Positions 25,585-63,263 of a stretch of DNA of 64,000 nt are shown one piece after another (position 1 is the stretch's first letter; each line of letters begins with the position of its first letter). The position numbers and the translations under genes were made by a program. The notes beneath the pieces are model-generated. The model searched no databases, had not been told where the DNA came from, and saw only the letters and a program-made list of their open reading frames with translations. Source of the DNA: Ginglymostoma cirratum (lineage: Eukaryota). The stretch lies in NCBI GenBank assembly GCA_024137785.1, contig JAHRHZ010000163.1, positions 814,163-878,162 on the forward strand, read 5' to 3'.

Positions 25585-25674
25585 GGCTCACTGGTCTAGG
25601 GGTTTGATTCTTGCATAGGATACTTTAGAGTGATGACATGTGAGAGGTCCTGGGTTCAACTCACGGATGAGTCC
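25585..25674 (+). tRNA. Intron-containing tRNA-Pro(AGG) (degenerate)
   Basis: GGCTCACTGGTCTAGGGGTTTGATTCTTGCATAGGA[TACTTTAGAGTGATGACA]TGTGAGAGGTCCTGGGTTCAACTCACGGATGAGTCC, with an 18-nt intron at 25621-25638. Confidence 0.85.
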
Positions 25675-25696
25675 AGATTTCTTGCTCCACTTTTAG

Positions 25697-26010
25697 GAGC
25701 AGCATGGTGGCACAGTGGTTAACATTTCTGCCTCACAGAACCAGGAACACGTGTTCAATTTCAAATTCGGACGACTGTCTGTGTAGAGTTTGCACATTTT
25801 TGCCGTGTCTGTGTGGGTTTCCTCTGGGTGTTCCGGTAAAGTCCAAAGATGTGCAGGCTAGGTGGATTGGCCATGCTAAATTGCCCACAGTGTTCAGGGA
25901 TTTGTACATTAGGTGGGTTATAGGGGGATGGGTTTGGGTGGGTGCTCTGAGGATCGGTGTGGGCATGTTGGGCCAAAGGGCCTGTTTCCACACTGTACGG
26001 AATCTAAATT
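25697..26010 (+). mobile_element. HE1-like (V-SINE) tRNA-derived SINE
   Basis: tRNA head (tggtggcacagtggttaaca..gtgttcaatt), V-domain-like gagtttgcacatttttgccgtgtctgtgtgggtttcctc, and a CR1-type tail. Confidence 0.85.
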
Positions 26011-26162
26011 CCCACAATACGAAATGGACCTCATTGAGCACCTCAAGCCTACTTCTAAAGGGAATACGAGGAAACCTTTCAGACAATCAAAACAATTGGG
26101 CAAGAAGAAAGATAGCCCGTTCGTTCCCTTAAGCCTATTACACAAGAAGAGAAGGAGTCTAG

Positions 26163-27021
26163 TGTTGTGGACCAGACCAGAAACACTAAAAAATATTTTC
26201 AGAAGGTAGTCTAGACCCTAACGATTGCTTATTTTAAAGGTAAATGTAAAGGACCATGTTCCAGATGCAATGCGACTGGTCAAACTACTCAACATTGAGC
26301 AAAACAGAATTTATTTAAAATACAATCAAAAAAAAGAAATTTTGAATAATAACTCTATTGGAAAAATTAACAGAATATTAGCTACAGTAACTATCACTAA
26401 TTAAATGTTCCAACATGGTAACATCCATAATTATACACCTTGGAAAAAGGGGAAAAGAGACACAGATTCTCACATGCGGTTCTCCAATCCAGGAGGAAAA
26501 AAGAAACTACCAAAAGAAATTCAGAGGGAGTAGCAGCCAGGAGATATTAACTGAAGCTTTCAACTCGGTTGAGACCCCAATAGCTTCTGTTCCCACTGAA
26601 AAAACAAAACCCAGAAATCCTAAACTGTGAAAGCTGAGCACACCCATTCAGGCTGCATTTTTTAAAAAAAACAAGGCCTCCCAATCTCTTTATTCAAGTG
26701 GTTATCACTATCCAGCTTGAACCATCTAATTCAATTTCTTAAAAGAAACCAGGAAAAAACAACTTCTTAAAGCTACGAGATAACAAGGTGTAGAGCTGGA
26801 TGAACATAGCAGGCCAAGCAGCATCAGAGGAGCAGGAAAGCTGACGTTTCGGGTCTGAACCCTTTATCAGAAATCTGACTTTTCAAACCCAAAGCATCAG
26901 CTTTCCTGATCCTCTGAAGCTGCCTTGCCTGCTGTGTTCATCCACTCTACACCTTGTTATCTCAGCTTCTCCAGCATCGGCAGTTCCTCCTATCTCTTCT
27001 TAAAGCTACAACATTTTCACA
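26163..27021. mobile_element. Solo LTR (TG...CA) with 4-bp TSD, interrupted by a fold-back element
   Basis: CTAG|TGTTGTGG...TTTCACA|CTAG. Confidence 0.65.
26777..26995. mobile_element. Fold-back PLE-tail element with 14-bp TSD
   Basis: Inverted arms. CTTCTTAAAGCTAC at 26763-26776 and 26996-27009. The left arm (reverse complement) reads CTGATAAAGGGTTCAGACCCGAAACGTC. Confidence 0.85.
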
Positions 27022-27914
27022 CTAGTTAGCACATCAAGGTGTTAAAGAGGAACAGTGGTAGCCCAATCAGGCCCTTGGTCCTGTCCAAACAAACAAGGAT
27101 GAAGCTGTACAGCCCATTGCTTCATTTACACAGGAACAGCCGGTGGCCATTTAGGCCCTCCCGTCATTTGTACAGGGACAGAATAAGGTAGTTGATGTTA
27201 AAAAAATGACAAACAAATGGCGCAACGGCTGGTCTACGTTGTTGCTCGTGCTTCCATTGCTTGTGGGGCACAGGTGGTATTTTAAAATGGTTTTGTAACA
27301 ATGAGGATGGAAGCCTGATGTCTTGTGTGAAGTTTCGAGGAGGCATATTCCACTTCCGAGAAGAGAGTCTGGCGTTGTCTTTGGAGGTCAGAAGATGATG
27401 GGAATGGCTAACTATTTCAAAACGAAGGCATTGTGGCTGATGACAAGATTGTGAACAACAGGACGTTGAGCGCAGTGTCATACAGTAATGTGGAGAGAGT
27501 TCGTTCAGAGCCTATACCTCTCTCTCAATCAACATTGGTCTCCGCAGAGAGACAGAAACTAATTTAATGCCATATCCTGGGTAAAGTATGGAATTTCTCA
27601 CCCTATCAACGTCTTTTTTGGACATGAGTGATTGCTACCAACCCTCAACAGATTAAACACTCAGTTTCTTCGCTCTCTCCTCATGGTACCATCATCTCGA
27701 GTATTAGACTGGTGATACATGTTTGCACTGTGTGGCAAGGAGATCCTTCCTTTCACAAGAGATCAAATCTGCACACAATGCCCCAAATACTCTCCCATAG
27801 AAGCTCTACAATTGCAGGAGGATGGTTTTACTTCTATACTTGAATCATATCACAATGAAGAACAACATGCCATTTACACCCTCATTACTGACACTGCTGT
27901 ATGTATTACTCCGT

Positions 27915-28520
27915 AATTGCCTGGATGATTACAGCCCCAAAACACTCAAGAAGTTTGACACCATCCAGGATAATGCAGTCCACTTGATTGGCACTCCATC
28001 CATCAGCGTCCACTACCTGCTCCCCCAACAATCAGTCTCAGCAGTGTGTTCTATCTACAAGATGCAGTGCAGAAATTCACCAAAGATCTTCAGACAGCAC
28101 TTTCCAAACCTACTCAGAGATGGTAATAACTGCCCATGCTGCAGCTACGGCCTGACCTGAAACGCCAACATTCCTGCTCCTCCGATGCTGCCTGGCCTGC
28201 TGCGTTTCTCCAGCTCCACCTTCCAAAACCAGGACATCTTTTATCTAGCAGGACAAGGGTAGCAGACATATGGGAATACCACCACATCAAAGTTCCCCTC
28301 CAAGCCACTCACCATTCTGACTTGGAAATATATTTCCGTTCCTTCACTGTCGCTGGGTCAACATCCTGGAATTCCCTCCCTGAGGGCATTGTGGGTCAAC
28401 CCACAGCAGGAGGATTGCAGAGGCTCAAGAAGGCAACTCACCATCGCCATCTCAAGACCAACTAGGGACGGGCAATAAATGCTGACCAGCCAGCGATGCC
28501 CACATCCCACAAAGGAAAAA
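27915..28520 (+). mobile_element. LINE 3' end (L2/CR1 group) with a nested PLE-tail insertion at ~28115-28217
   Basis: TLKKFDTIQDNAVHLIG..VCSIYKMQCRNSPKIFRQH, ..SWNSLP, and tail ggcaataaatgctg. Confidence 0.75.
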
Positions 28521-60993: not shown

Positions 60994-61014
60994 CACTTTC
61001 CCACAAATGTATGT

Positions 61015-61108
61015 GGCTCATTGATCAAGGGGTATTATCCTTGCTTAGGTTACTCTCCAGTGATGACGTGCGAGAGGTTCAACTCCAGTTCAAATCCGCA
61101 ACAAGTCC
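61015..61108 (+). tRNA. Intron-containing tRNA-Pro(AGG) (degenerate)
   Basis: GGCTCATTGATCAAGGGGTATTATCCTTGCTTAGGT[TACTCTCCAGTGATGACG]TGCGAGAGGT..GTTCAAATCC. Confidence 0.82.
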
Positions 61109-61881
61109 AGCTTCCTTGCTTTGCTTTTGACATAATGCCAAGTGGGCTTTCCGAAAAACCAGCTTCGTAACAAGATGTCGGGTTGCCTGAACTGGGGATG
61201 GGGCAGCGGTACCATTGCAGTGAATGAGGCAAAAGGAAACACTTGTTCAAGGCGAAAACAAGTGTTTCAGGTTGTTCGCCCACGCAATCTGACTTTGACT
61301 GGTCCTTCAGGGCGTAAAACTTCCGGAAGCAGGGATGTGAAGTGATTGGAGACAGCGCTGAACAGATTCAGGTAAATGGTGCTGTGTATGAGGAATGTCA
61401 GCGACGAAGATGGATTGGAAAGTTGAGAAAGCTCTCCTTGGAGAACAGAAAGCTGAAAGCTAGTCTGTTTGAAGCTTTGAACTGAGAGTGGTAGGGTCAA
61501 TCTAACAGTACTGACGATGCAGATTCAATCAACACAACAGGGAATTTGATAGTTATGTGACAAGTAAAAATGGGTAGAGTTACACTGAGAAGGCAAGAGA
61601 ATTACACTAAAAGAGACACTCATTTACTCATTGTGGAGAGCGGCACAGCTAAGATGGGCTGCATCGCCTCCATCTGCGTTGTGACAAATTTTGTGATTCT
61701 GAATAAAATCGGAATGTGGCACTAACAGAATGGGGGAATTTAGACATAGGTTATGTTTACATAGATGAGACACTTCTGCACAACAGGGTATTACACAATA
61801 ACAGTGAAGGCTTTTGAATTCATTCTTGAAGGTACATGCCACACGTCAAATGAAAAGCCTAAAAGGCACACAGCACCACCA

Positions 61882-61952
61882 AGCAGAGTGGTGCAGCAGG
61901 AGCATGTGGCGTCATAACCGAGCAGTTGATGGGTTGAAGCCATCCTCTGCTA
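61882..61952 (+). tRNA. Initiator tRNA-Met pseudogene
   Basis: AGCAGAGTGGTGCAGCAGGAGCATGTGGCGTCATAACCGAGCAGTTGATGGGTTGAAGCCATCCTCTGCTA. Confidence 0.8.
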
Positions 61953-63178
61953 TTCACTACAGGCACATGATGTTTTGTTCTGCCCCTTCCGTAAAGATCA
62001 GCTTTCTGCTTCTAGTGTCTGAAATAAATCATTCATACTGATAGACAGGTGAGGTGACACACTTGTCAACGTCTCAATACCTTACTCCTGTTCACCGTCG
62101 GTCTTCTCTAAATTGGGAATAAACTGGTGAAGCTGAAACACATTACTTCCAGTTATTTTTCCAAGGCCTGCAGTAATGGCACACGCTGCTTCAGATGTGA
62201 ATAGCAAGAGGATCATCATGTTGGAGACAGCATCACGACAAAGACACAGTTCACCATTGTTAGGATTGTGAATAACCTCAGGGAAATACAAGCGACAGAG
62301 AGTCACCTTGGGCTCCATGGGCTGAACGGCTTCTTTCTGCACAGTATTGACACCATAGCTTGATGACATCACTCTCCCAGTCTCTGTGACGGAGCGGGTG
62401 GGGGAGAAACAATGGCTCATTATGAACCCTCCCTTCTGCGGTGTCCTGTCTGCAGCCCTGCAACTCAGGGCCGTTGGGGACGTCTCTCAGTGAGTGAGTG
62501 TTTGACTCAGATTCTCTTAATCTCTGACTGCTGGTGTCAATATTAACTCCTGCCCTGGATGCAGTAAAGGGACAGAATCCCGCGTTGCCAAGGTGTTATT
62601 TACAGGGCTGTTGTGTGCAGACAAATTCTGAACACCAAACAGGCTGCACAGAAAGATCCCATTTTAAGCTGCTGAAGGGACTAATCTCCAGTTTCGTCTT
62701 CTCTCTTTCTCAGCAGCTCTCCAAGCTTCTGTCTGTCTCTGATAAATGTCATTCGACAGAAGTTCCAAACTGCCATTAAATTATTTGCTGCACAAGCCTG
62801 ATTCCACTGGTCTGCCCCATTCCTCTTCCAGTGCTTGAGAGCGAGGTGTAGAGCATATACCATCTCCCAGCACTGCCTGCCCTTGGATGGGAAATGATTT
62901 AAGCATCTGCCAATGGATAGAACACTGTCCCAGCGGAAGGGACAAATAGCATTGCCCCAGAAACAGGGAGGCAGAACGAGAAGAAAATGTTCTTTGCTGC
63001 TTTCACTGTCTGAAGCAACGGGGAATAGTATTTTTTGTCTAATCAACATGTTCAGATAAATTATTACACACCTCTGGAGCAGCTAGAACTTGAACTCTGG
63101 TCTCCTACATCTGAGGTAGGGACACTATCACTGCCTGAGTGGCATCTGGTTTATTGTTAACTGGGACTTCATCAGACT

Positions 63179-63263
63179 CGTTTGTTGGTTTCGTGGTCAT
63201 ATTGTCACTTCAGGTGGCTGTTGTGAGTGTGAGAAGTTACAGGTTTGAATCCTGTATGAGCCC
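63179..63263 (+). tRNA. Intron-containing tRNA-Pro (CGG-type) pseudogene
   Basis: TTGTTGGTTTCGTGGTCATATTGTCACTTCAGG[TGGCTGTTGTGAG]TGTGAGAAGTTACAGGTTTGAATCCTGTATGAGCCC. Inverted counterpart of 56772. Confidence 0.7.

Follow-up and report, generated by a model that had tools for sequence, protein, structure and literature searches.

Proline tRNA copies in the window

The window, i.e., the whole stretch of 64,000 nucleotides that was analysed, stems from a shark, its best protein matches being to carpet sharks. It contains six copies of tRNA-Pro genes, all of them at the places given by the first-pass annotation. In each, an insert begins one base behind the anticodon and separates position 37 from position 38. 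The features are as follows.

25585..25674, + strand: decayed pre-tRNA-Pro(AGG) copy with an 18-nt intron (25621-25638), likely the 5' part of a pre-tRNA/SINE chimeric retrocopy
25697..26006, + strand: full-length tRNA-headed SINE of ~345 nt, fused behind the 25585 copy
52846..52935, - strand: decayed tRNA-Pro(TGG) gene with an 18-nt intron (52882-52899), DNA-level cluster duplicate
56772..56856, - strand: decayed tRNA-Pro(TGG) gene with a 13-nt intron (56808-56820), cluster duplicate
60448..60532, + strand: heavily decayed Pro-derived gene with an anticodon reading CGT and a 13-nt insert (60484-60496), cluster duplicate
61015..61108, + strand: decayed tRNA-Pro(AGG) gene with an 18-nt intron (61051-61068) and an extra 4 nt inserted into the 3' exon, cluster duplicate
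63179..63263, + strand: heavily decayed Pro gene with an anticodon reading CAG and a 13-nt intron (63215-63227), cluster duplicate

A profile built from the six copies and run over the window scored these with 54-71 bits and indicated no seventh copy, the next best match reaching 8 bits. ARAGORN at default settings recorded only a tRNA-Ser(CGA) gene and the 52846 copy, and Rfam at the gathering score only the Ser gene. The 97-159 calls obtained from ARAGORN with relaxed thresholds were mostly spurious and were discarded.

The inserts are located at the canonical position of tRNA introns (37/38) and fall into the two length classes previously described, 18 nt (25585, 52846, and 61015) and 13 nt (56772, 60448, and 63179). 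Their position is not due to chance, since it recurs in 133 of the 146 near-complete copies of the genome. A purine at intron position -3 is present in all six copies and T32 in five, as annotated, but the purine is common by descent and does not amount to six independent observations; G37 is kept in three of the six. All six copies are pseudogenes without an intact mature tRNA domain, and 10-23 of their 72 exon bases differ from those of an intact gene (12 in the 25585 copy, 10 in 52846, 16 in 56772, 22 in 60448, 15 in 61015, and 23 in 63179), which agrees with their earlier description as degenerate. The proposed coverage of AGG, TGG, and CGG anticodons holds for the first two, whereas no copy of the window literally reads CGG. 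The CAG of the 63179 copy likely derives from CGG, as judged from a flank-sharing paralogue (L076_3451) that carries CGG together with a related 13-nt intron, and from seven CGG copies with 18-nt introns elsewhere in the genome. A CGG ancestry of the 60448 copy finds no support in its paralogues, which read CGT, CAT, CGC, or TGT.

Five of the window copies have flanks in common with copies on other small contigs. The upstream flank of the 52846 copy is 73-90% identical over ~220-250 nt with those of copies on contigs C101, C102, C109, C110, C127, and C134, and that of the 61015 copy is found in eight other copies, with 81-94% identity for the four that were measured. The 56772 copy shares flanks with three loci (L076, L179, and L182), its unit being 71% identical in the flanks with the 63179 unit over 719 nt, and the downstream flank of the 60448 copy is 90% identical over 249 nt with that of L180. 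The upstream flank of the 25585 copy is common to no other copy, and its trailer of ~21 nt is followed directly by the SINE, of which positions 3-340 align at 25699-26006 with 75% identity, representing the sole match of this SINE within the window. The element presumably resembles HE1/V-SINE. A related species has a copy similar to that at 60448; its contigs were evaluated over window positions 60200-61500, the comparison of differences covering 40 of 134 rows. As a side observation to which no weight is given, these contigs dip over the 61015 gene.

The Pro family in the whole genome

The genome-wide set comprises 201 Pro copies, 146 of them near-complete. One and the same 18-nt intron type occurs in copies with AGG (38), TGG (32), and CGG (7) anticodons, which bears out the annotated spread of an intron family over Pro isoacceptors, and T32 is combined with a purine at -3 in 86 of the 93 copies with an intron of exactly 18 nt. 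The intron types present, of 12, 13-14, 18, and 19 nt, are dissimilar. None of the 133 intron-bearing copies is an intact member of the 13- or 18-nt lineages of the window: the least-diverged ones show two and four non-anticodon differences, while 129 of the 133 show at least five. The best 18-nt copy (L056, two differences) is located ~1.5 kb from a block of N that spans at least 7.6 kb. The first 18 nt of the gene have 25 exact matches in total, and six of these are visible as intact Pro genes, of which one is interrupted by N and none carries CGG. Intact intronless genes coexist with intron-bearing ones of near-identical exon sequence.

The non-fused copies appear as remnants of gene clusters: 36 of 60 have an upstream flank in common with another copy, the flanks of cluster copies being 71-94% alike, and the first T4 run of the cluster trailers lies at an offset of 15-17 in 14 of 29 cases. 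Among 50 fused copies, which are described below, CpG sites differ at 34.8%, compared with 7.6% elsewhere.

Probable tRNA precursors fused to a SINE

The first-pass annotation overlooked that most copies of the genome, including that at 25585, are likely retrocopies of tRNA precursors fused to a SINE. In 80 of the 146 near-complete copies, a precursor tRNA consisting of a 7-nt leader, the intron-containing tRNA, and a partial trailer is joined head-to-tail with the SINE. No upstream flank common to any other copy was found for 73 of these 80, and none of the 80 has one in common with a cluster copy. Upstream of the tRNA part, 64 fused copies show a base bias that ends at -7, the commonest base occurring in 36-47 of the 64 at -1, -2, -3, -5, -6, and -7, but in at most 28 from -8 to -14. 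Six further copies are linked into chains by a second tRNA or repeat, the second units including tRNA-Lys(CTT), tRNA-Ser(TGA), and an intron-bearing Arg-like tRNA. In a control with Lys-CTT, five of 12 matches were SINE-fused, one of them being the source of the probe, and two of 12 were intact. One fused intronless copy (L224) has the same leader, C20, and stem variant as a TGG gene on contig C16, and the two are, as judged from these sequence features, a parent-daughter pair. Another one (L044) carries C59, which is present in 24 of 41 AGG copies of the intron family, and a trailer starting with AG, as in 21 of 49, and could be a single case of a spliced retrocopy. The second unit of L169, also considered as a spliced copy, was rejected as an internal deletion. 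The internal junctions of 18 truncated fusions, which were inspected for fossil splice intermediates, are spread over nt 24-85 without any pile-up at the splice sites.

Of 126 SINE 5' ends, 97 follow a Pro copy, a share that results from ascertainment, and ARAGORN detected no tRNA before the other 29, eight of which carry truncated Pro pieces; fusion should thus be regarded as a minority trait of the SINE. A tRNA-headed SINE family derived from one master was rejected as an explanation, because the copies are heterogeneous in their junctions, anticodons, introns, and leaders. What is found instead is a small Pol III RNA fused to the front of a retroelement in sense orientation, the sites being unrelated and the junctions independent, as in template-switch chimeras. 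TSDs are not in excess of a shuffled control (mean longest common word of 5.38 vs. 5.15 nt in 66 full-length copies; words of at least 8 nt in three of the 66), and we therefore describe the fusions as working like template-switch chimeras rather than assigning them to that class. The missing TSDs around the whole unit would also fit an origin in two steps, in which a pre-tRNA retrocopy was already present when the SINE inserted at its 3' end, as well as RNA ligation or read-through by Pol III, and PMC4476161, in its available text, allows two independent events for tripartite chimeras. Such origins appear unlikely in view of the uniform geometry, as all scored fusions are sense and head-to-tail at the SINE 5' end and lie at most 25 nt from the tRNA end or within the tRNA. 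Moreover, the parent trailer does not resume behind the SINE (four matches among 71, all out of register), and read-through from one master would yield one junction, whereas the fused trailers of 1-25 nt occur in 23 different lengths.

An intact pair of intron-bearing genes

A search for intact intron-bearing Pro genes, as suggested in the first-pass annotation, yielded two Pro-AGG genes on contig C46.

G000:C46:19769922-19770005, - strand: intact Pro-AGG gene with a 12-nt intron
G000:C46:19771021-19771111, + strand: intact Pro-AGG gene with a 19-nt intron

In both, the sole departure from the intact intronless gene is a C in place of T at position 20. They form 20 of the 21 cloverleaf pairs, the odd one being a T13-T22 mismatch that is found in the intronless gene as well, and are followed by T4 and T10 runs at most 5 nt from the gene end. 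Their exons are identical, while neither the introns nor the flanks can be aligned, which is the pattern expected under selection on the exons, although gene conversion could also have made the exons identical. The A-I pair between a pyrimidine at 32 and a purine at intron -3 is available in both genes. In the gene with the 19-nt intron, U32 to G37 pair with the intron in a 6-bp helix, and a bulge of 3 nt lies at the 3' splice site, in agreement with the BHL/A-I description in the available text of PMC10275265. This anticodon-intron helix is absent from the MFE fold of the 12-nt intron, for which only two pairs were recognised by inspection; in two further copies (L056 and L054), the predicted BHL is partial. 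Introns of 12-13 nt are shorter than the ranges given for tRNA introns, which are 14-60 nt in yeast (PMC10275265, available text) and generally 15-30 nt (PMC10485636). Searches for retrocopies or paralogues of the C46 introns were negative and thus gave no fossil sign of their transcription, and these introns are not recognisably of the 18- or 13-nt type, so the intactness of the pair does not show that the lineages of the window are alive. Taken together, the C46 genes are likely active and spliced.

It might be argued that all copies belong to a defunct SINE-like repeat whose insert was never spliced, and that the C46 pair is non-functional or recently converted, since at least five differences have accumulated in 129 of the 133 intron-bearing copies and the intact intronless genes could supply tRNA-Pro. 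We consider this very improbable, because no single master lies behind copies with 23 different junction lengths, three different anticodons, and several types of intron, and because the cluster copies have gene-like flanks and terminators. In addition, the C46 exons are perfect in spite of diverged introns and flanks, and an exact BHL is obtained for the 19-nt intron.

Discussion

The available evidence is probably best explained by canonical introns that are removed by the tRNA splicing endonuclease, with the window representing a decayed region, the C46 pair being likely active, and most other copies likely being retrocopied precursors. Intron-bearing Pro genes would be transcribed by Pol III, TSEN would cut both intron ends, and RtcB would join the exons to an ordinary tRNA-Pro. 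A six-frame search with PF01974 for TSEN genes, which is blind to spliceosomal introns, gave no match, and a search of sequencing runs returned no RNA run among the matches (best word share 0.14). The window itself is probably part of an ancient tRNA gene cluster that was duplicated again and again and decayed by CpG mutation. The 18-nt lineage was likely once transcribed in the germline, because it is represented in precursor-SINE fusions (80 of 146) and chains. During this time, a LINE reverse transcriptase copying the SINE RNA would have left its template at the SINE 5' end and continued on an unspliced pre-tRNA, entering the latter in its 3' part, and such a switch would sometimes have happened twice. 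This would have left dispersed fossils of leader, tRNA, intron, trailer, and SINE, such as the 25585 copy.

A weaker, but serious, contender is that the 18-nt lineage is still the main source of tRNA-Pro, with a homogeneous high-copy array collapsed, missing, or hidden in the assembly and the window as its decayed fringe. Intact genes are indeed very few for a vertebrate (six for Pro with none for CGG, two of 12 for Lys-CTT), L056 lies close to the mentioned N block, and individual contigs of the related species that cover the 60448 unit reach depths of 286-1908 compared with ~9-20 for other contigs, a depth that is no copy number. However, none of the 133 copies is an intact 18-nt one, no fused retrocopy is young (the minimum being five differences), and the flanks of the cluster copies are only 71-94% alike. 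We favour the decay of a formerly expressed cluster, although the 18-nt lineage may still have working genes in array sequence that the assembly does not show.

According to the available text of PMC10275265, introns occur in four human families, Tyr-GUA (13/13), Ile-UAU (5/5), Arg-UCU (5/6), and Leu-CAA (5/7), and the shark Pro family falls outside of these. It resembles them in the short intron between N37 and N38, the A-I pair of U32 with the third-last intron base as a purine, the BHL fold, and the variability of intron sequences within a family, but differs in the isotype (Pro with AGG, TGG, and CGG), the coexistence of intron-bearing and intronless genes, and the prevalence of pseudogenes. 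The literature searched contains no account of introns in the tRNA-Pro genes of sharks or fishes, but GtRNAdb and bioRxiv supplements may already list them. An earlier published account of the same taxon describes the same general phenomenon, using a tRNAscan-SE cut-off of 50; its main text names no isotype (neither "proline" nor "Pro" occurs) and suggests functional roles, whereas most Pro loci described here are decayed cluster duplicates or SINE-fused retrocopies.

Instead of a gain in sharks, the Pro introns might be ancestral to vertebrates or eukaryotes and lost in the mammalian line, which we regard as somewhat less likely than not. Budding-yeast Pro-UGG has an intron, and the several dissimilar intron types (12, 13-14, 18, and 19 nt) suggest old age. 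A metagenome scan for intron-bearing Pro genes gave five stretches, none identifiably vertebrate, and the two with a 28-nt intron are Pro-CGG contigs with a different acceptor stem. Families of tRNAs tend to be all-or-none with respect to introns (PMC4090602), and section 18 of that paper covers gain as well as loss. The coexistence of both gene kinds with near-identical exons rather fits a transition in progress, and Pro is absent from the human intron families given in the available text of PMC10275265. A Pro family of this constitution would offer a natural test of intron gain, spread across anticodons, and loss, and of what an intron changes in modification or expression.

What is new here is that 80 of 146 Pro copies are precursor tRNA-SINE fusions, with six more in chains, and that tRNA-Lys behaves alike. 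Many high-scoring tRNA loci of sharks are likely SINE-captured precursors and not genes, which concerns their annotation as well as published associations of tRNA abundance with genome size. The retrocopies also preserve leaders and trailers of extinct transcripts. The literature searched contains no report of pre-tRNA/SINE chimeras, but Repbase may already list such elements. As far as the available text of PMC4476161 shows, which cites Schmitz et al. (2004), template switching has produced U6/L1, U6/L2, and U6/Mon-1 SINE chimeras as well as triple chimeras, and human pre-tRNA retropseudogenes are also known. The shark fusions correspond to these in that a small Pol III RNA is attached 5' of a retroelement in sense orientation, in the serial chains, and in the copying of unspliced precursors, but they differ in the full-length SINE partner, in the captured RNA, a pre-tRNA with leader, intron, and trailer, in the lack of detected TSDs, and in at least 80 events stemming from one tRNA family. 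A tRNA is likewise co-inserted with a retroelement in the primate tRNA/LINE-1 chimeras (bioRxiv 10.1101/2025.02.02.635956), for which the available text reports 21 loci, mostly with antisense tRNA halves and TSDs, whereas those of the shark mostly contain whole precursors in sense orientation.

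tRNA-Pro copies in the window

The six tRNA-Pro copies claimed by the first-pass annotation, with inserts of 18 or 13 nt located one base 3' of the anticodon, were all found as described, and a profile made from these six detected no seventh copy in the 64-kb window. Exon differences were counted over 72 exon bases, using an intact intronless Pro-AGG gene of the same genome as reference.

tRNA-Pro copies of the window (coordinates, strand, insert, anticodon, exon differences)
25585-25674, +, 18 nt, AGG, 12/72
52846-52935, -, 18 nt, TGG, 10/72
56772-56856, -, 13 nt, TGG, 16/72
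60448-60532, +, 13 nt, CGT, 22/72
61015-61108, +, 18 nt, AGG, 15/72 plus a 4-nt insertion
63179-63263, +, 13 nt, CAG, 23/72

As judged from the sequence, a functional gene is improbable for each of them. ARAGORN at default settings called only the 52846 copy and one Ser gene in the window.

Genome-wide census

The window is part of a 1.58-Mb contig (C163), and the searched genome comprises 4.36 Gb in 289 contigs. Exact matches were obtained genome-wide for a 24-nt 5'-exon motif (16), the intronless-junction sequence (3), a 3'-exon motif (10), the C20 variant (5) and the first 18 nt of the gene (25, all of them examined). Looser searches yielded 144 and 105 matches, 100 of each being listed and most of those listed examined, and the census represents a sample skewed toward copies with well-preserved 5' exons. 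After leaving out 55 truncated or too decayed sequences from 201 distinct copies, 146 were analysed. An insert of at least 9 nt is present in 133 of these, 93 of which carry exactly 18 nt; 11 copies contain no insert (one of them by internal deletion) and two an insert of 2-7 nt. The 18-nt intron type is common to the anticodons AGG (38 copies), TGG (32) and CGG (7), and T32 together with a purine at intron position -3 occurs in 86/93. The shark Pro intron family is a real feature, albeit mostly fossil: at least five non-anticodon differences are found in 129 of the 133 intron-bearing copies.

Intact tRNA-Pro genes

Intact intronless Pro-AGG genes are located on contigs C16 and C264, an intact intronless Pro-TGG gene of a stem variant on C16, and an intronless Pro-TGG gene ending at an N block on C65. 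The intact intron-bearing genes for which the first-pass annotation had called exist as a Pro-AGG pair on C46, while none was found within the window's own intron lineages, whose best-kept members, loci L056 and L033, show 2 and 4 non-anticodon differences, respectively.

Intron-bearing Pro-AGG genes of C46
19769922-19770005, -, 12-nt intron
19771021-19771111, +, 19-nt intron

The two genes are divergently oriented, 1.0 kb apart, and are the only tRNA genes called by ARAGORN in 40 kb. Their exons are mutually identical and match the intronless gene except at position 20. Their flanking sequences cannot be aligned with each other, and oligo-T terminators are present behind both. The 19-nt intron forms a helix with positions 32-37, leaving a 3-nt bulge, and this fold corresponds to the bulge-helix-loop with anticodon-intron pair described in PMC10275265 and PMC10485636; the 12-nt intron allows just two pairs of that anticodon-intron kind. 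Neither intron has a genome-wide paralogue at up to two mismatches, the single extra match being a copy of the 18-nt family. From their sequences, the pair likely represents two live genes. Since no intact CGG Pro gene is visible in the assembly and N blocks adjoin several of the loci, functional genes may be hidden.

A young repeat end (L067, 1011-1096) that matches many genomic copies at 100% identity lies about 5 nt upstream of the 12-nt-intron gene; copies related to it are also found beside the C16 genes. Two metagenome contigs (L191, L192) contain a tRNA-Pro(CGG) with a 28-nt canonical intron.

Probable SINE-fused retrocopies

The dead copies fall into two classes, SINE-fused ones and cluster duplicates. 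The 5' end of a tRNA-headed SINE of about 345 nt begins 1-25 nt behind 80 of the 146 copies, including the 25585 copy of the window. Of these fused copies, 73 share their upstream flank with no other copy and none of the 80 with a cluster copy. They retain the leader signal to -7 and the intron, their trailer extends no further than the place where cluster genes have their terminator, and no resumption of the pre-tRNA trailer was found behind the SINE, nor any TSDs around the fused copies. In 18 additional copies the SINE is joined within the pre-tRNA at scattered positions. Six further copies are chains with a second unit or other repeat between Pro and SINE, namely tRNA-Lys-CTT, Ser-TGA, an intron-bearing tRNA which we take to be Arg-like, a presumably Glu-like fragment, a Pro copy with a deletion, or another repeat. 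At L025, L152, L085, L131, L136, L139 and L169, pre-tRNA-Pro is fused with other tRNAs or with a second repeat family, with at most three RNAs per chain.

SINE capture is not limited to Pro, because Lys-CTT copies are fused as well (5 of 12 matches, the probe's source counted among the five). The fusion at L224 has its leader, C20 and stem variant in common with the TGG gene of C16, and is thereby tied to a known parent gene. The captures are old, because CpG sites in 50 fused copies have decayed more than others (34.8% vs 7.6%).

Beyond the anatomy and counts of the copies and the intact C46 genes, which are direct observations, we propose that Pol III would transcribe the intron-bearing Pro genes, TSEN and RtcB would splice their introns, and a LINE reverse transcriptase may switch template from the SINE 5' end to the pre-tRNA. 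Such a retrocopy mechanism would be unexpected. The retrocopies are the best evidence for germline transcription of the 18-nt genes, but not for splicing, at which a single locus (L044) weakly hints.

Cluster duplicates

Among the 60 non-fused copies, 36 share their upstream flank in register, and the cluster duplicates sit on small contigs (C101, C102, C109, C110, C127, C134, C163, C200, C201). Because of shared flanks, five window copies are regarded as cluster duplicates. Further decayed tRNA genes support the view of the window as an old tRNA cluster.

Decayed tRNA genes of the window
10762-10845, +, Ser-CGA (ARAGORN and Rfam)
8094-8175 and 4447-4512, +, presumably a Ser-GCT-like and a Trp-like gene

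The 60448-type gene (window 60448-60532, +; L100, L101, L106, L133, L180, L196, L203, L205, L209) has a distinct 3' half, preserved across many cluster units and in a related species. It could represent a pseudogene that has been homogenised, or else a tRNA-like RNA that has diverged. Contigs of a related species over the 60448 unit show a depth of 286-1908 vs about 9-20 for other contigs, which is at most a hint of a high-copy array.

Relation to known work

PMC10275265 names Tyr-GUA, Ile-UAU, Arg-UCU and Leu-CAA as human tRNA intron families; the shark Pro introns are canonical, but of an isotype outside these. Yeast tRNA introns have been both gained and lost, according to PMC4090602. Passages of PMC11574265, PMC4536317 and PMC2888827 do not mention Pro introns; Kuraku et al. 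also belong to the known work. No report of fish Pro introns, nor one of shark pre-tRNA/SINE chains, was found in the literature searched. The significance of the shark family is tempered by a prior general report and by automated catalogues probably listing such Pro genes already. Chimeras of U6 with the Mon-1 SINE, triple chimeras and retropseudogenes of human pre-tRNAs are described in PMC4476161, and tRNA-half/L1 chimeras in 10.1101/2025.02.02.635956.

Other elements of the window

The ORF at 18861-19424 (-) matches GPR139-like receptors with up to 89% identity, the best named matches being from Chiloscyllium, Stegostoma, Heterodontus and Rhincodon. The source animal is accordingly a shark, and probably one of the carpet sharks.

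18861-19424 and 30360-30746, -, broken pieces of GPR139-like receptor genes, from a family expanded in sharks
12558-14849 (+), 16430-17225 (-) and 31159-31956 (+), decayed ORFs of retroelements, which we take to be Penelope-like, in which RT-like and GIY-YIG-like motifs are recognisable
39325-40332, 84-nt tandem repeat, reading as decayed C2H2 zinc-finger units
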